From NCBI GenBank assembly GCA_944388895.1, contig CALXKR010000003.1:1-33561 (forward strand): a stretch of 33,561 nt of DNA, read 5' to 3'. Positions 24,019 to 33,163 of this stretch are shown in pieces. Position 1 is the stretch's first letter; each line of letters opens with the position of its first letter. This stretch comes from an uncultured Clostridia bacterium. Its GTDB lineage: Bacteria; Bacillota; Clostridia; TANB77; CAG-508. A program made the translations under genes and the position numbers. The notes under the pieces were generated by a model, which did not search any database, had not been told where the DNA came from, and worked only from the letters and a program-made list of their open reading frames with translations.

Positions 24019-24065
24019 TGGAGCCACCAGCGAGAATCGAACTCGCGACCTACAGGTTACGAACC
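24019..24065 (-). pseudogene. 3' half of a tRNA-Thr(CGT); att-like site at the integrase end of the island
   Basis: Minus strand GG-TTCGTAA-CCTGT-AGGTC-GCGAG-TTCGATT-CTCGC-TGGTGGC-T-CCA; no D-arm or 5' acceptor strand upstream. Confidence 0.88.
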
Positions 24066-24175
24066 AATAGGTATTGTTTTTAGCTCGCATATAAATATTT
24101 TTTTATTTCAGTCGCTAAAGTTATTCATATTAGTGACTTTTATCATATCACATAATTAAAATTTTATCTACCTTT

Positions 24176-25489
24176 TTATGCAATTTTTCTAATAATTCTG
24201 ATTTTTCCCTTTATTTTCCCTTTATAAATAATTGGTGTTTTCTTTTCTTCTTTCAGGATATTATTCTTATAAAATTCTTCTATTTTTTTATTTTCTTCTT
24301 TTTCAAATTCAATTAATAAATGGGTATATCTATCTGTCATTCTTGAAGTTGAATGTCCTAATAATTTTTGCAAATATTTTACAGAAATTCCAGCTTCTAA
24401 ACATCTTGTAGCAAAGGTATGTCTTAATTGATGTACTCCTATATGTCTAAATCCAATCTGTTTTAAATATCTACTTAATTTTGTCCATAAAAAATCTGCT
24501 TTAATTCTATTGCCTTTGCTTGTCAAAAAAAGAGGTTTTCCCTTAAGTTCTGCTATAGACTTTATGTTATTAACTTTCATATATTCTTCTCTATATTTTT
24601 TTAATAACTCATATGCTCCAAATAGCATTGGTATTTTTCTTACACTACTCTCTGTTTTCAAATCACTTTCTTCAACTGTATTTTTTTGTCTTTTTAATTC
24701 TTCAGTGAATAGTGCAGTACAAACTAAACCATTTCTAACCATTACTATTCTATTTTTAAAATCTATATCATCCCAGTCAGAACCTGCTGCTTCACTTGCT
24801 CTTTCTCCTGTTTTTAGTAAAAACAAATAAACTGTAAATTCATATTTATGTGCAAGTAAATTTTCAAATTCTCTTTGTTCTTCTCTTGACATTATTTCTG
24901 GTTCTTTAACTCTTAATTTAGGTGGATCTACTTTTTGCACACAATTACTTTTTAATAAATTATTTTTTATTGCCGCTTCAAAAGCCATATTTAGAACACA
25001 ATATGTATCTTTTATTGTTTTAGGTGCTAACTGTTTTTTAGTAGTTTTACATTGTCCTGTTTTCATTTTAGTCAATATTTGTTGAATATGAATAGGTTGT
25101 ATCTTTTGTAATTCATATTTTCCTATTTCAGGAACAATATATTTTGTGATTGCAATAATATAGGAACTTAAAGTGTTATTATTGACTACTCCTCTTTTAT
25201 ATGTATTTATCCACTTTTTTAGCCATTCTTCTACAGTTATGTTATTACTTAAAATATAAGAATTATTTTCAGATTCATTTTTTATTTGAGCCATTTTTTG
25301 AATAACTACTCTTTTATCCTTGTCGCTGACAGATACTTGTTTTTTTATTCCATCAATTTCTATTGTAACTCTTCCTTCATATGAGTTACCTTTTTTTCTA
25401 ATTGACCCTTCGCCTTTATTTCTTCTTTTCACATCACCTAATTTCTTTTTACTCTTTTTTTCTTTTATATCATTTTTTTCTTTACTCAC
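24176..25489 (-). CDS. int: Tyrosine integrase (phage/ICE type with arm-binding and SAM-like domains)
   Basis: RRNKGEGSIRK N-terminus, TVEEWL..W, catalytic TGERASE (R), LKTESS (K), HQLRHTFATR, LGH, MTDRY. Likely GTG start 25489 behind GAGGTG (ORF track 25552). Confidence 0.93.
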   Translation of the reverse strand: MSKEKNDIKEKKSKKKLGDVKRRNKGEGSIRKKGNSYEGRVTIEIDGIKKQVSVSDKDKRVVIQKMAQIKNESENNSYILSNNITVEEWLKKWINTYKRGVVNNNTLSSYIIAITKYIVPEIGKYELQKIQPIHIQQILTKMKTGQCKTTKKQLAPKTIKDTYCVLNMAFEAAIKNNLLKSNCVQKVDPPKLRVKEPEIMSREEQREFENLLAHKYEFTVYLFLLKTGERASEAAGSDWDDIDFKNRIVMVRNGLVCTALFTEELKRQKNTVEESDLKTESSVRKIPMLFGAYELLKKYREEYMKVNNIKSIAELKGKPLFLTSKGNRIKADFLWTKLSRYLKQIGFRHIGVHQLRHTFATRCLEAGISVKYLQKLLGHSTSRMTDRYTHLLIEFEKEENKKIEEFYKNNILKEEKKTPIIYKGKIKGKIRIIRKIA

Positions 25490-25589
25490 TAAAATCACCT
25501 CGTAAATATGTTTTAGTAGAGTTAGAATATATTTGTACTTATTATTATACATCTATTCTTCTACTAAAAAAAGCTCAAAAAAAATTTTT

Positions 25590-25994
25590 TTAATATTTAA
25601 TAAAATTCCCTATATTCTTGGTCATCCAGTCATTTATTCCTAATTTATTTATTAAAATTCTTCTCTTAAATTTCACACATGGGAAATCAGGCAATTTTAC
25701 GAGTTCGGCAACTAACTGTTTACTTACTCCTAAATATTCTGCACATTCTTCTATAGTCATTCCTATTTTTTCAATCCCTGTATTTATTGTTATTTTATTT
25801 TTTCCTTCTTTTATTAATATTTCTTTCATTAGTTTCATTAACATATTCTCATCTTTATATACTTCAAACATAGTTCTTATTTCTTCAATTACATCTTCAA
25901 CTGTTCTCTCTTTATTAGCACTATGAAAAATGCTATGAAATGCCATTACTATATAGCCTATACAGCATTCTCTGTTTATATAAATTCTTTCCAT
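25590..25994 (-). CDS. Excisionase-like HTH_17 protein with a ~75-aa N-terminal extension
   Basis: C-terminal MTIEECAEYLGVSKQLVAELVKLPDFPCVKFKRRILIN...NDWM; directly upstream of int; GGAGG RBS. Confidence 0.8.
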   Translation of the reverse strand: MERIYINRECCIGYIVMAFHSIFHSANKERTVEDVIEEIRTMFEVYKDENMLMKLMKEILIKEGKNKITINTGIEKIGMTIEECAEYLGVSKQLVAELVKLPDFPCVKFKRRILINKLGINDWMTKNIGNFIKY

Positions 25995-26013: not shown

Positions 26014-26038
26014 AAAAAGCCAGTATATAACCTGACTT
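26014..26038 (-). terminator. Weak terminator-like hairpin in front of the excisionase
   Basis: Minus strand AAGTCAG-GTTATATA-CTGGCTT-TTT. Confidence 0.45.
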
Positions 26039-26201
26039 ATTTAGTATTTTTATATTTTTTATTTTTATAATCCCTTAAAAAATTTACCTGTTCTTGATCT
26101 TCCATCATTAGTTCCTTTTCTGATTTATTTTTGTTTCCACCAATTATCACACAAAACATACTTGTTCCAATTAATATTAGTATCAAAATTAATATAAACA
26201 T
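26037..26201 (-). CDS. 54-aa single-TM small protein (not in ORF track)
   Basis: MFILILILILIGTSMFCVIIGGNKNKSEKELMMEDQEQVNFLRDYKNKKYKNTK; GGAGGT RBS at 26206-26211. Confidence 0.7.
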   Translation of the reverse strand: MFILILILILIGTSMFCVIIGGNKNKSEKELMMEDQEQVNFLRDYKNKKYKNTK

Positions 26202-26211
26202 TATTACCTCC

Positions 26212-26563
26212 GACTTTTAGTGTTTTAATTCATTAAATGGTAATCAGCTACATTACTCCTCAGGAATCTAACCTATCTGAACTCAGACTTGTTTTCATTG
26301 CTTGGGACGGTTCTTTCTCGCTCGTGCTATGACTAAACAAGAGTATTATTATTCATCTTTATTAGTTATCGCCTTATCAGTTGCTAACTGATATTTAAGT
26401 TTTATAGTTCTGCATCTATAAATTAAACTAGCTCTTAATAAAGTGTTTATTTAACGAATGTTATTCAATTTTCAATGTGCTTTTTATTCTCAAAATAGAA
26501 ATAAGTGAAAGAGTTTTCTTACCCCTTCACTTATTTGCTCACAAAATTTGATTTTGTCCCCCC
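26212..26563 (-). ncRNA. Putative structured cis-acting RNA with a boxA-like element
   Basis: ORF-free region with a 15-bp hairpin (26499-26536), GCACATTGAAAATTGAATA (26462-26480), stems at 26375-26393, 26288-26341 and 26276-26287, and a T-loop-like AGGTTAGATTCCT. Confidence 0.55.
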
Positions 26564-27019
26564 CTATTTTTCAAAAAATTTTTTTATTTTTTTCAAACCT
26601 AGTTGAAGACTCTTTTCTATTTGCTTTTTTTGAACCATTTCTATTTTAGCTAAATCTCTTATTGTAATTTCATTTACTATGTGTAAATCTATTCTTCTAT
26701 ATTGAGCTTCTGTAAGATTTTGCATTGCTTGATTTACTTTTTTTCTCTCTATATTTTTTATAACCGTTTCTTCTACACTTTCCACTGGATCAAAAGCTCT
26801 TTTATATATTTCTTCATCAGTTAATGAAGAATGTTCTAAATATCTACTTGTTTCATTTTTTATCTTTGTATAAGCTTTTTTTGATTTCATATATGTATCA
26901 AATATTTCCTTATCAATTTCAATTCTACAGTCTTGGTTGGCACTATCTACAAATGATATGTAATATTTATCTTCATCCTCTATATATTCTAAAGTATAAC
27001 TATCTACTTCGTATTGCAC
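26564..27019 (-). CDS. Sigma-70 region-4 (ECF/Tn916 Orf7-like) transcription factor
   Basis: SVEETVIK..ERKKVNQAMQNLTEAQYRRI.L....TIRDLAKIE.VQKKQIEKSLQLGLKKIKKF; GTG start behind AGGAGG. Confidence 0.78.
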   Translation of the reverse strand: MQYEVDSYTLEYIEDEDKYYISFVDSANQDCRIEIDKEIFDTYMKSKKAYTKIKNETSRYLEHSSLTDEEIYKRAFDPVESVEETVIKNIERKKVNQAMQNLTEAQYRRIDLHIVNEITIRDLAKIEMVQKKQIEKSLQLGLKKIKKFFEK

Positions 27020-27034
27020 TGTCCTTCCTCCTAT

Positions 27035-27223
27035 TCATTTCAAATTTTTTGAAATGAATTTAGGTGGGCTACGACAGTGAAGTTCTATAGTACAAAAAAA
27101 ATCAAGTACACATGAAATAACTGCATACTTGATTCGTAAAAAAAGACATAATAATCTTTTAAGGACATATTTTAATATATTAAATTTGCTATATGTAATA
27201 TTATTAGTCAAACCTTTTAACAT
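27035..27223 (-). CDS. 62-aa leader ORF ending in RSPP (putative ribosome-arrest peptide)
   Basis: AGGAG RBS 6 nt before ATG; ...IELHCRSPPKFISKNLK; stop codon lies inside a hairpin adjoining the SD of the sigma gene. Confidence 0.6.
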   Translation of the reverse strand: MLKGLTNNITYSKFNILKYVLKRLLCLFLRIKYAVISCVLDFFCTIELHCRSPPKFISKNLK

Positions 27224-27496
27224 ATAAAACTCCTAAAAGAAAATTGACTTAACAATTTCTAAAAGGAGTTTTTATTTTTTAGGGGATATTATTAACTCAT
27301 CAAAGTCCGAAATATTTATTGTAATTTTCTTTTGTTCTTCATAATTCTTTTGATTAGCCTCCTTTTCAGACCTTGATTAAGTTGATTAGATTATATTTTC
27401 TTTTAGGTCTTTTGTGATAGTTGGGTTAAAAAGGGCTATAAAAAGGTAAAAAAAGGCTACTACTTTTTGCTTTTGGCATATATTTCCATTTTAATA

Positions 27497-27525
27497 TTGA
27501 TTTTACATAATATTTGTGATATAAT
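27497..27525 (+). promoter_or_regulatory. sigma-A promoter of the Spo0A-like gene
   Basis: TTGATT (27497-27502), 17 bp, TATAAT (27520-27525) with extended -10 TG. Confidence 0.65.
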
Positions 27526-27559
27526 ATCCTCATATTTAAAGCATTTGTGGAGGTTTGCA

Positions 27560-28276
27560 ATGTTAAAAGTTCTAGTAGCTGATGAAAATCATGCAGCAAA
27601 CTTAGATTGCTGTCAATATCTAGCAAATGATAAAAACCTCGATGTACTAAGTACAAATAGTGGAATTAATACTATAAATGCATATAATAATTTTCATCCT
27701 AATGTATTAGTAATAAATTCTGACTTTAAGGATAGGAGTTATACTGAAATACTCAATGAACTTTCTTCTACATCACTTGAAAGACAAAAAACCAATGTAA
27801 TCCTTACTGTAGAAGATAATGGGAAAAGAATTGAATTAGATTTCATGGCTAAAGTTTATAAGTTGTTTTATTCTGTTGACTATGAAAAAATTAGAGAAGG
27901 AATAGAACAATATAACTTAGATAATGTGATTTTTTATGAGCCAAACGAGAAAACTTTAAGTGCATTGTTTTATAAATTGAATTTGTATAACGAACAAACT
28001 GGAGCTAGTTATCTAAAATATGCCATTATACAATCTTATAATAACCAAACATCAACAAAGACCTTAAATGACATTTTTAGTTTAGTTTCCAAAGCATTTA
28101 ATGTTTCCTATAAATCTGTTAGACCTGCAATGAGAAATGCTCTAAAATCTGTAAATAATTATAGAAAAAAATGTGGTAATACTGGGATTTTTAAACTGTT
28201 TGAAAATGAAGACTCAATTACTCCAAAAAATTTTATAAAAATTATAACTAGATATTATATAAAACAAAAAAAATAA
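27560..28276 (+). CDS. Spo0A-like regulator: pseudo-receiver plus Spo0A C-terminal DNA-binding domain
   Basis: MLKVLVADEN...HPNVLVIN receiver fold; GASYLKYAI...DIFSLVSKAFNVSYKSVRPAMRNAL...TPKNFI aligns by eye with Spo0A_C. ATG 27560 behind GGAGG (ORF track 27467). Confidence 0.75.
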   Translation: MLKVLVADENHAANLDCCQYLANDKNLDVLSTNSGINTINAYNNFHPNVLVINSDFKDRSYTEILNELSSTSLERQKTNVILTVEDNGKRIELDFMAKVYKLFYSVDYEKIREGIEQYNLDNVIFYEPNEKTLSALFYKLNLYNEQTGASYLKYAIIQSYNNQTSTKTLNDIFSLVSKAFNVSYKSVRPAMRNALKSVNNYRKKCGNTGIFKLFENEDSITPKNFIKIITRYYIKQKK

Positions 28277-28315: not shown

Positions 28316-29497
28316 TTATTGGTATTTATACTCTTTATATGCTTCTATAATATCTTTTGCTGTTCCAGCATAAGGTTCTCTTACACAAGCATTTAATTTG
28401 TTATCTGTAATATTTATAACTTCCATTAATTCATTATCAGGTATTTCTCCTATTGTACTGAAACTAGGAAATTGGTCTTGTAATTTTTCTTTTGTCTTTC
28501 TTATAAGTTCTAATCCAGACATATTTGAAAAATTATATTTAGAAAATACTAATTCTGGTTTTAATTCTACTATTTTTTTATATGTATCAATTCCATCACA
28601 AGCTATTCCCACTATATTAATATACTCTAAACTAGAGATAGAATTTACTATTGCTTCTCTTATTGTATCATCATTATGAGCAACGATAGTCCTTATTTTT
28701 CTTGTTTCTGTATCTAATTTATTAATTAAAAATTCCAAATTTTCTTGTTGTAAAGCGTTTGCGAAATACTTATCTTTTCCATTTTGAGTTTGTATAATAT
28801 CTGCATTTGGAAGAACTACCATACTTTTTTCAAATTCACTTTGTTTTTTATATTGAATTATTTTAATATTCTCAAATGTTTTTATTTCTCTTACTTTATT
28901 TTCTAATTCATCTTCAGATATTTCAAATGTTTCCTTGTTTACTAAAGCTTTCTCTCTAATAGGCATAAATTTAAGAAATTTCCACTTTTCAATCTTATAC
29001 TTATTTAAAAATTCTCCTAATTCCTCTAATTGATTTATATTCTTTTTACTAACAACTGTATTAATACCAACTTTTATCTTTTTATTCTTAGTTTTTTCTA
29101 ATAGATTTTTGATTATTTCAAAGTGGTTATCTTCTTTACCTAATGACTTATTTATTTCATTATCAATTGAATCTATTGATAGATTTATTTCATCTAAAAT
29201 ATTTAAAATATCTTCAACATACTCATTATCATTTTTTGATAGAAAAATTCCATTTGTTACTAATTTATTGTGTACTCCATTTAACTTAGAAATTCTCATA
29301 AGCTCATTTACTCTAGGATATAATACTGCTTCTCCACCAGTCCAAGTAATATGGTTTATTCCATTCTGTATTAAATTATTTAATACTTTTTCATTTTCTT
29401 CAAATGATAAATCTTCAATATTATTAAAACCAAAGCAATATTTACAATTTTGATTACATCTTGTAGTTATTTTCCAACATACTTTTTGTTTACTCAT
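28316..29497 (-). CDS. Radical SAM enzyme (viperin/MoaA-like fold) fused to a C-terminal pseudo-receiver domain
   Basis: CNQNCKYC (CxxxCxxC), TGGE, VTNG, SIDS, INTVV, KWK; C-terminal [11 protein letters not shown]...VGIACDG...KPELVFSK...MSGLELI. ATG 29497 behind AGAAAGG. Confidence 0.85.
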
Positions 29498-29741
29498 GTA
29501 TATCAACCTTTCTCTACTATTTGACATAATAATTATACATTAGTATTTGATGTATGTACAGTTGGAATTTTCTAATGGTCATTTCATTTTATCAAACCCA
29601 CTAATATAAATATATTTAACTTCTTTATATTTGAGTTTATAGTTAGTGATGAAAAATTATTTTATACCTGCCTCTTTTTTATCAATTTGTCGAGATGAAT
29701 TGTATCTCATAATTAAACATTAGGTTTGTTTTTATATATTT

Positions 29742-33087: not shown

Positions 33088-33163
33088 TGGAGCCACCAAG
33101 CAGAATTGAACTGCTGACCTTTGAATTACGAATTCACTGCTCTACCAACTGAGCTATGGTGGC
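33088..33163 (-). tRNA. tRNA-Thr (anticodon CGT)
   Basis: GCCACCA-TA-GCTCAGTTGGTAGAGC-A-GTGAA-TTCGTAA-TTCAA-AGGTC-AGCAG-TTCAATT-CTGCT-TGGTGGC-T-CCA; 76 nt, G27:A43 mismatch. Confidence 0.94.

Follow-up and report, generated by a model that had tools for sequence, protein, structure and literature searches.

Leader peptides on which the translating ribosome arrests control several bacterial genes. In the SecM–secA and MifM–yidC2 systems, arrest on the leader prevents formation of a helix that blocks initiation downstream (PMC10951233). ApdA and ApdP (and ApcA, RAPG), which lie upstream of sec genes, arrest at an R-x-P-P core in which Arg is essential and x is a small residue. Here we analyse a stretch of 33,561 nucleotides (nt) from an uncultured Clostridia bacterium (contig CALXKR010000003.1, assembly GCA_944388895.1; the whole stretch is called the window), in which a small leader open reading frame (ORF) with Arg-Ser-Pro-Pro near its end precedes a gene for a sigma-like protein on a mobile element. 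A translated-looking RxPP motif, a covarying hairpin that pairs with the Shine–Dalgarno (SD) sequence of the sigma-like gene, and a fixed geometry between the two are conserved across homologous loci. We propose that the leader acts in cis as a translational switch of the RxPP arrest type.

The locus shares its logic with SecM and MifM, which differ in having other arrest sequences, in being force-sensing monitoring substrates and in controlling chromosomal housekeeping targets; two homologous loci (L054 and L055) read IRAPP, near the IRAGP of SecM as quoted in PMC12992588. With ApdA and ApdP it shares the R-x-P-P core, the essential Arg and the small x. Those peptides are ~100 amino acids (aa) or more in length, carry a signal peptide or transmembrane (TM) segment and are released by Sec/YidC pulling, whereas here 7–56 residues precede the stall site and no export signal is present. 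Some leaders have only 7–16 codons before Pro-Pro and so lack the signal peptide or TM segment, followed by a spacer of ~30 residues or more, that allows force-dependent release (PMC10987492). The residue at x is mostly Ser here, Cys precedes the Arg, the target is a mobile-element sigma gene and the hosts are Bacillota. A survey of annotated proteomes (EMBO J 2025) reports that upstream ORFs (uORFs) with RGPP or RAPP are absent from many Gram-positive groups including Bacillota, probably because such ORFs are almost never annotated.

Arrest motifs of this type also control genes outside protein export, as they would here, in CruR of Bordetella pertussis and in the RAPP/RGPP peptides of S. lividans, two of which (SLIV_33595 and SLIV_33605) lie 5′ of extracytoplasmic function (ECF) sigma genes (PMC12992588). 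CruR is a copper sensor with a signal sequence, and four TM segments are predicted in the Streptomyces peptides; these cases are all chromosomal and, unlike the present leaders, none is minimal or tied to excisionase (xis) and integrase (int) genes. In leader length, the toiL uORF (topAI-yjhQ) and ErmCL/ErmBL are comparable, at ~8–20 codons, and there a stall opens an SD-hiding structure or otherwise de-represses the target (PMC12121999, PMC5118997). The Erm and toiL stalls depend on a bound antibiotic and on different peptide motifs, whereas RxPP can stall unaided. In the Erm leaders, the stalled ribosome unmasks the SD; for Erm and toiL alike, the input is the state of the ribosome.

A similar arrangement of genes is found in Tn916, whose Orf7/Orf8 (Sig7-8) form a split, autoactivating sigma factor that is toxic at high levels and required for excision (10.64898/2026.10.01.756105). 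Tn916 encodes this small sigma-70 region-4 protein, a positive regulator of excision, before xis and int, and the window has the same order at the end of an integrated element; in some distant homologous loci a divergent HTH_3 gene lies upstream, as in Tn916. Leader control of conjugative elements has a precedent in the orf12 leader of Tn916, which acts by transcription attenuation before tet(M) (10.64898/2026.10.01.756105). What is new relative to Tn916 is the RxPP type of the leader, its target gene and the minimal leaders. A first-pass annotation of the window, made from the sequence alone, knew of no description of arrest-peptide control of island activation. Our literature search agrees for arrest: it returned no case in which an RxPP or CRSPP leader precedes the sigma gene of a mobile element (such cases could stand in the uORF lists that supplement PMC12992588 and PMC10987492, which lay outside the search), but orf12 sets a limit to the claim where leader control in general is concerned.

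An RxPP leader in front of a sigma-like gene

The sigma-like gene (26564–27019, minus strand) encodes 151 aa from a GTG start, and its C-terminal half resembles sigma-70 region 4. Upstream of it we find, as the first-pass annotation had described, a leader ORF of 62 aa with its own ribosome-binding site and RSPP near its end (27035–27223, minus strand; MLKGL...ELHCRSPPKFISKNLK, the ending also written ...LHCRSPPKFISKNLK). The SD of the leader, AGGAG at 27234–27230, stands 6 nt ahead of the ATG at 27223. The C terminus reads E47-L48-H49-C50-R51-S52-P53-P54 and continues K-F-I-S-K-N-L-K to a TGA stop (27037–27035) that lies 15 nt before the sigma GTG. The proposed arrest module is the run of Cys-Arg-Ser-Pro-Pro codons at 27062–27076 on the minus strand: TGT (27076–74), CGT (27073–71, R51), AGC (27070–68), CCA (27067–65, P53) and CCT (27064–62, P54).

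The leader peptide matched no Pfam, NCBIfam or PHROG family, and only 4 matching proteins were found among 5.8 billion database proteins. RxPP is uncommon in the genome, which comprises 1.3 Mb in 138 contigs. Within open frames of at least 100 aa (475,615 residues) RxPP occurs 6 times, never with A, G, S or D at x, and of the 51 occurrences in all six frames just one, that of the window, is followed by an SD-pairing hairpin. The arrangement in the window is thus not a product of chance.

The motif is conserved as a peptide

We gathered homologous loci in three ways: from the genomes of 60 relatives, from one genome per species, and by a search with a 15-sequence profile, which covered 399 scored genomes of the class and gave 52 matching at E ≤ 1e-8. 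The resulting set of 52 loci, comprising the window and L002–L056 after removal of the duplicates L001, L013, L027, L028 and L029, is drawn from across Clostridia, with sigma-like proteins that are 26–90% identical. An in-frame RxPP lies within 150 nt of the sigma start in 43 of the 52, and L046 also has one, bringing the count to 44; an upstream RxPP ORF is therefore a conserved feature of these sigma genes. The first-pass annotation had named a lack of conservation of RxPP and hairpin at homologous loci as grounds for refutation, and the outcome is the opposite. The 44 loci share an invariant Arg and a small residue at x. Among the loci lacking RxPP, one match is limited to the C-terminal half of sigma (L026), one locus is broken (L034), one has only a terminator, 3′ of another sigma-like gene (L033), one retains the SD hairpin (L036), and four (L032, L048, L050 and L051) have a leader of another type, described below.

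Codon usage across the 38 unique leaders separates selection on the peptide from selection on the RNA. Cys directly precedes Arg in 35 of 38 (TGT 19, TGC 16), and Arg itself is encoded by CGT (20), CGC (10), CGA (1), AGA (5) and AGG (2). At x we find Ser in 27 leaders (AGC 7, AGT 5, TCA 2, TCT 7, TCC 6), Asp in 5, Gly in 4 and Ala in 2. The first Pro is CCA (22), CCG (7), CCT (7) or CCC (2), and the second CCT (25), CCA (6), CCG (5) or CCC (2). The codons flanking the motif vary freely, and in a distant subgroup all differences within the five motif codons are at third positions. No constraint at the RNA level explains an Arg kept across CGN and AGR codons or a Ser kept across AGY and TCN, and we conclude that the peptide is under selection. 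The residues accepted at x (S, D, G and A) are those that permit arrest in mutagenesis of ApdA and ApdP, where the Arg is irreplaceable, Gly is fully permissive or better, and Ser, Asp or Pro is partly permissive (PMC12992588).

Outside the motif there is little constraint on the peptide. The leader is a small uORF directly 5′ of the regulated gene with the motif near its 3′ end, yet its length before Pro-Pro ranges from 7–8 to about 56 codons, leaving 6 to about 52 residues upstream of the motif. The peptide after Pro-Pro is unconserved, and one-base indels there shift the frame even between close relatives (the window and L015). Where the leader terminates ahead of the sigma start (19 of 38), 3–13 codons separate motif and stop. 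The first-pass annotation had also pointed to a Cys/His spacing; C38, C44, C50 and H49 are all present in the window, but the spacing is not conserved, and we dropped a metal site as an explanation, since homologues keep only C50 among these residues, with H, L or Y at the C44 position in close relatives.

Not every leader has an obvious start. In four loci (L040, L042, L043 and L047), AGGAG or AAGGGG is followed 6 nt on by ATC, ~10 nt before the Cys codon and in frame with GCRSPP; this ATC may be a non-canonical start of a 7-codon leader. An alternative frame beginning at an NTG that overlaps the Cys codon was considered and dropped. It is inconsistent across loci, the window itself reading CTG TCG TAG, and it is further disfavoured by a subfamily of mini-leaders (below) that has an ATG upstream and in frame with RSPP.

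A covarying hairpin pairs with the SD of the sigma-like gene

The SD-sequestering hairpin of the window spans 27027–27067 on the minus strand. Its parts stand as the first-pass annotation had read them: the Pro-Pro codons as anti-SD (CCACCT, 27067–27062), a perfect 12-bp stem (ATTCATTTCAAA, 27059–27048; loop AAA; TTTGAAATGAAT, 27044–27033), the SD AGGAGG (27032–27027) and, after a 7-nt spacer, the sigma GTG (27019–27017). The leader stop falls within the 3′ arm. When 27000–27100 (minus strand) is folded with RNAfold, the CC.CCU of the Pro-Pro codons pairs with the AGG.GG of the SD, which lengthens the 12-bp stem in the manner anticipated. The minimum free energy (MFE) of this fold is −27.7 kcal/mol (z = −4.8), and none of 200 shuffled sequences was as stable.

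We folded the 38 unique segments from the first Pro codon through the start codon. Every MFE fold pairs 2 or more SD bases, and 24 of the 38 pair the entire SD; the mean z is −5.9. The stem sequences are wholly different between subfamilies, and the 3′ arm always terminates in GGAGG. RNAalifold, applied to a plain MAFFT alignment, gave 13 pairs, and 8 of the 9 inner pairs show double compensatory changes. Pairing is retained in 92.9% of alignment cells against 77.5% in column shuffles, a value reached by 0 of 500 shuffles; 88 cells are changed on both sides, compared with 33 in the shuffles; and the covariation score of 0.448 drops to 0.10 or less when the partners are slid by 1–3 columns. The hairpin is thus conserved with compensatory changes, so that the second part of the test proposed in the first-pass annotation is positive as well.

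Motif and hairpin keep a fixed relation to each other. If the first base of the first Pro codon is taken as the origin, the anti-SD lies at nt 0–12 in all 38 leaders and the SD starts at +30 to +51, so that the other strand of the SD helix is always under, or just 3′ of, the proposed stall site. A stalled ribosome holds roughly the next dozen nt in its mRNA channel. In RAPP stalls, the third residue of the motif occupies the P site and the fourth the A site (PMC12992588); by analogy with those toeprints, a ribosome arrested on the window's leader would have P53 in the P site and P54 in the A site. With Pro-Pro so placed and a dozen nt in the channel, neither the anti-SD nor the first part of the 5′ arm could pair, and the SD would lie free, 14 nt or more past the leading edge. 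The predicted geometry of the hairpin therefore fits unmasking of the SD by a ribosome paused with Pro-Pro in its P and A sites.

Proposed switch and alternative explanations

We consider it probable, at roughly 65%, that the leader is a cis-acting switch in which a pause on RxPP unmasks the SD of the sigma-like gene. With no ribosome on the leader, the SD would be locked in the hairpin, its partner strand being the Pro-Pro codons or the sequence just 3′ of them. A ribosome paused on Pro-Pro would hold the anti-SD and the 5′ arm in its mRNA channel, the hairpin could not form, and a second ribosome could start at the sigma GTG. From this arrangement we infer both the arrest itself and its direction, towards expression of sigma. 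The sigma-like protein would then presumably drive the xis–int module and, by analogy with Sig7-8 of Tn916, may drive its own promoter as well; such self-activation would amplify small changes in pause time into excision.

The input to such a switch would differ from that of the known RAPP peptides. Many of the leaders have 7–16 residues before the stall site and no export signal, so that relief by a pulling force, as in SecM, MifM, ApdA and ApdP, is not available to them; the length of the pause must then depend on the state of the ribosome. Candidate inputs are the rescue capacity of EF-P or ABCF proteins, the supply of Pro-tRNA, and ribosome-targeting drugs. Control could alternatively be exerted on initiation of the leader, through the first of two upstream hairpins (hairpin 1, below), and at the second, which is terminator-like.

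Several points weigh against this proposal. Most native RAPP-like motifs in B. subtilis and E. coli proteins arrested inefficiently in the PURE system (Chiba group; PMC10987492), and the N-terminal context of the motif can prevent stalling altogether (PMC10951233), though, according to the summary in the latter paper, a minimal RxPP was enough in the Buskirk selection. Ser and Asp at x, the commonest residues here, were only partly permissive in the ApdA/ApdP context (PMC12992588). Fifteen of the 38 unique leaders have no canonical SD-preceded ATG, GTG or TTG in the open frame; these mostly precede sigma genes of the MKxINLRDYYPFY type and include the four with ATC described above, and their translation is read from the codon pattern alone. 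For 19 of 38 leaders, resumed translation would carry the ribosome across the sigma start in another frame or make a fusion (4 are in frame with sigma), and could interfere with sigma initiation. The four outer C-G pairs of the hairpin, formed by the Pro codons and GGAGG, never vary and so contribute no covariation signal. As for the target, the window's protein scores 33 bits against TIGR02937 (sigma70-ECF; residues 40–147), below the cut-off of 42.9, and its matches cover the C-terminal part only, with neither a region 2 nor a partner subunit identified (a partner encoded elsewhere was not searched for); 'sigma-like region-4 protein' is therefore the safe description. Contigs from RNA libraries of one metatranscriptome study (X17 and X18) cover int to 26630, sigma at 26612–26955 and the leader at 27068–27408 as separate pieces. 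None bridges 26956–27067, which neither supports nor contradicts co-transcription; starts, ends and strand of transcripts are not visible in such contigs, and the libraries may contain DNA.

Plain translational coupling is the likeliest of the alternatives, although we regard it as unlikely. A ribosome passing along the leader would melt the hairpin, and the sigma start would be re-initiated or newly loaded, with RxPP incidental or a by-product of a C-rich anti-SD read in frame. The positions of the leader stops go some way with this idea: besides the 15-nt gap in the window, 15 of 38 leaders stop in the 3′ arm or SD, and the CC.CC of the Pro codons does double as the anti-SD. Yet the stop position is not conserved (5′ arm in 2 leaders, loop in 2, 3′ arm or SD in 15, past the sigma start in 19), and an anti-SD accounts for CCNCC but leaves unexplained the Arg that lies two codons further upstream and is retained despite the use of five different codons, the Ser encoded by both AGY and TCN, and the Cys in 35 of 38. 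The Cys, Arg and Ser codons are unpaired in most folds, and many distant loci in which the anti-SD lies 3′ of the Pro-Pro codons still keep RSPP.

A stalled ribosome might instead set the level of sigma mRNA, by blocking a 5′-to-3′ exonuclease or by triggering collision and rescue. Stalled ribosomes stabilise erm mRNA in Firmicutes, and the motif and its position would serve protection or processing of the message equally well. Pairing of the SD, always with sequence under the stall site and with covariation, is left unexplained; we therefore think this improbable as the sole function, and it could act in addition. Less probable again is control of the opposite sign, in which arrest is a brake on read-through into or over the sigma start, perhaps with the message targeted for rescue, so that a stall lowers sigma. 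The frame does cross the sigma start in half of the leaders, occasionally in the frame of sigma itself, and tight repression would be useful given the toxicity of high Sig7-8 in Tn916 (10.64898/2026.10.01.756105), but a ribosome on Pro-Pro necessarily holds the anti-SD, 0–12 nt downstream, and so frees the SD, an effect that fits poorly with a brake. That the leader is a trans-acting small protein, its Cys and His residues (C26, C38, C44, C50 and H49 in the window) binding metal or sensing redox and the hairpin unrelated, is hardly credible for a peptide that conserves C50 alone, has 8 to ~56 codons before Pro-Pro and a tail in no fixed frame, and matches no family.

Mini-leaders and a second leader class

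We built a covariance model (R1) from the 38 leader and hairpin segments and ran it on 151 genomes of the class (E ≤ 1e-3). It returned 20 matches in 18 genomes: the window, 5 places of the training set and 14 new places. R[SD]PP is present in 12 of the 14 new places, and 9 of the 14 stand immediately ahead of an ORF that the sigma profile recognises; of 10 downstream ORFs tested, 8 contain Pfam Sigma70_r4 or r4_2. Elsewhere the model met a bare SD hairpin ahead of an ArsR-like gene (L076) or a downstream ORF that is short or truncated (L070, L078 and L079). The leader is specifically associated with small sigma-70 region-4 genes ahead of recombinase genes. One further match (L077, 325–394, plus strand) has a degenerate CRSLP before a 169-aa ORF that resembles the sigma-like protein of L068; the ORF has no detectable Sigma70_r4 and may be a decaying copy.

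The new places include a subfamily with unmistakable mini-leaders, in which AGAGGA is followed 6 nt on by ATG and MP[MRGK][CS]RSPP. Examples are MPMCRSPPFFV followed by a stop, MPRCRSPP..., MPGCRSPP..., MPKSRSPP... and MSKCRDPP...; in some the leader to Pro-Pro is 8 codons (MPxCRSPP), and the nascent chain on reaching Pro-Pro is then only seven residues, fMet and 6 others. Together with these, leaders such as MNKFYCRSPP and MLENLTMHCRGPP fill the range of 7–16 codons before Pro-Pro.

The four loci with a leader of another type (three unique) have, in the same position upstream of sigma, a peptide ending W-x7-P-stop (...YIAKYP-stop). The leaders lie at L032:1957–2014 (minus strand), L048:1148–1218 (plus strand) and L050:1104–1170 (plus strand; identical in L051) and encode MKRWETYIAKYP, MFYTIWQCQIAKYP and (M)TYKWLAYIAKYP, each followed by the stop. 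The stop codon lies at the base of a hairpin that sequesters the SD (z about −7). Pro-stop arrest peptides are known in Bacteroidota (PMC10987492), and this class may be a counterpart of the RxPP leaders that arrests at termination. The occurrence of two unrelated peptides at one position suggests that pausing, and not a particular peptide, is the selected property.

A CRSPPP leader with an SD hairpin is also found on an Enterococcus plasmid (L058, NZ_CP110291.1, 3900–4003), before an annotated sigma-70 family gene, which extends the design to Bacilli; a canonical start was not recognised for this leader. A sigma of this type, 52.5% identical, occurs in 33 Enterococcus plasmid records (tblastn), the leader having been read on one plasmid. 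The gene adjoins the bcrR-bcrABD bacitracin-resistance operon and an IS3 transposase, and the locus looks like the remnant of an integrative element.

A broader reading, which we offer tentatively and with slightly less than even confidence, is that minimal RxPP modules on integrative elements of gut Clostridia and on Enterococcus plasmids form an unrecognised class of leaders that, with the convergent W-x7-P-stop class, gate a master sigma. On this reading, excision would respond directly to how elongation proceeds on the host ribosome (EF-P/ABCF capacity, prolyl-tRNA, ribosome-targeting drugs) and not to a repressor or an export sensor. The excision decision of Tn916-like elements is still mostly portrayed as stochastic, and the commitment step in Tn916 is the toxic autoactivating sigma (10.64898/2026.10.01.756105). 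If the reading is right, a translational gate on the sigma gene would supply a concrete input to the excision switch and link mobilisation to translation stress. It would also mean that natural RxPP peptides consisting of the arrest module only exist in Bacillota, a minimal system for the duration of the RxPP pause.

The sigma-like protein and its mobile element

The first-pass annotation had called the target a sigma-70 region-4 gene. Resemblance to region 4 is supported by profiles, whereas the protein's own score stays under the curated cut-off, as given above, and Pfam gave no match at E ≤ 0.01. A profile of 15 family members searched against the PDB matched region 4 of FliA (6.5e-5) and also region 4 of SigW and RpoE. 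PF08281 is found on some homologues that are ~75% identical, one source labels a homologue a sigma-24 family protein, and distant members of the family exceed the Pfam thresholds for Sigma70_r4 or r4_2. Against annotated plasmids (E ≤ 1e-3) the window protein had 1 weak match and none to Tn916-bearing plasmids; against phages it had 3 weak matches, and as a single-protein query it found no relative in viral_contigs.

The relationship to Tn916 is accordingly one of arrangement: besides the lack of a match to Tn916-bearing plasmids, no Orf8-like partner gene was seen. We rejected Tn916 itself as an RxPP case. Its Tn925 copy on pCF10 (L059, 42855–42960, minus strand) has no RxPP before orf7, only an N-P-P 91 nt upstream, and the accessible text of 10.64898/2026.10.01.756105 mentions no leader or hairpin before orf7. 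Upstream of orf7 in Tn925 there are two hairpins, of which the first follows the in-frame N-P-P and ends in an SD-like AAAGGAG and the second pairs with the orf7 SD.

Downstream of sigma in the window lie a 54-aa hydrophobic ORF (26037–26201, minus strand), an excisionase-like gene (25590–25994, minus strand; HTH_17/TIGR01764 at residues 79–127; the true start may be internal) and a tyrosine integrase gene (24176–25552, minus strand; Phage_integrase at 8e-27, Phage_int_SAM_3). The 54-aa ORF matches no family and is kept at 43–48% identity in L005, L014–L016, L018–L022 and L026. Homologous loci have xis-like matches 3′ of sigma in 13 cases and int in 8 of those 13; among distant loci, L037 has xis and a tyrosine integrase and L045 a serine recombinase.

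Just past the integrase stop is the displaced 3′ part of a tRNA-Thr(CGT) gene (24019–24066, minus strand), which marks one end of the element. It comprises the 3′ 46–48 nt, beginning in the anticodon loop. In relatives, intact tRNA-Thr(cgt) genes adjoin ftsY, and their 3′ part is 91–93% identical to the fragment. Two relatives (G023 and G029) have the intact gene ~300 nt from ftsY, where the window has the fragment only, and a third (G458) has it there in inverted orientation. An intact tRNA-Thr(CGT) at 33088–33163 (minus strand), ~9 kb from the fragment, marks the other end. The sigma gene is therefore carried by a ~9-kb element inserted in tRNA-Thr(CGT), with the order leader–sigma–orf–xis–int, and the island with sigma upstream of xis–int proposed by the first-pass annotation is there. 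The two tRNA copies of the window share an anticodon-loop core, yet their 3′ halves are just 73% alike.

We recognised no conjugation genes on the ~9-kb element. Its cargo includes a divergent Spo0A_C-like gene (27467–28276, plus strand; 269 aa), a gene for a radical-SAM protein fused to a receiver domain (28316–29527, minus strand), and DUF3221, LysR and PIN-domain genes. The order radical-SAM, Spo0A_C-like, leader–sigma, 54-aa ORF and xis is repeated in homologous loci, and the Spo0A_C-like and radical-SAM/receiver genes may be the transcriptional input of the element.

Upstream hairpins and non-coding neighbours

A promoter-like site (ATCACA-17-TATAAT, 27390–27418, minus strand; consensus scan, 10 of 12 matches) is a weak candidate for the start of the leader–sigma transcript, since such sites are no commoner in the region than in shuffled sequence. 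Between it and the leader, folding predicts hairpin 1 (27226–27272, minus strand; AAAACTCCT...AGGAGTTTT), whose 3′ arm, ahead of TTTTAT, holds the leader SD. Long and short forms alike have the leader SD in such a 3′ arm, and folding pairs this SD in 19 of the 23 leaders for which an SD and a start could be recognised. Short forms reach Pro-Pro in 13–16 codons (L020, L021, L025, L024 and L004). Long forms (the window, L014–L019, L017, L011 and L005) have an extra segment of ~120–130 nt with a 14-bp hairpin and T-run, which in the window lies inside the leader ORF at 27094–27135 (minus strand; stem 27135–27099). This terminator-like hairpin was not called by a consensus terminator scan and is a candidate only. 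Hairpin 1 and the internal hairpin look like an upstream gate on transcription termination or initiation. The amino-acid likeness among long forms (LCLF..IKYA..CVLDFF) follows the RNA stem.

Neither the leader nor the hairpin falls within an Rfam family, whether in the window or in the 20 loci scanned, and Rfam matches were limited to pemK RNA 3′ of sigma, c-di-GMP-I far upstream, and tRNAs. Past the sigma gene of the window there is an intrinsic-terminator-like hairpin (26499–26536, minus strand; 16 pairs, T-rich tail). RNA contigs from two further studies (X19 and X20) cover here only the non-coding 26241–26518, just past this terminator. The pemK RNA motif (RF02913) was not called in the window and lies ~230–300 nt past the sigma stop in 10 of the 20 loci scanned (L008, L009, L020, L031, L032, L035, L037, L039, L040 and L045). 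Two of these loci also have c-di-GMP-I aptamers (L040, 2995–3084, minus strand; L045, 130–218, plus strand), which stand ~1.1–1.25 kb 5′ of the leader–sigma pair on the same strand.

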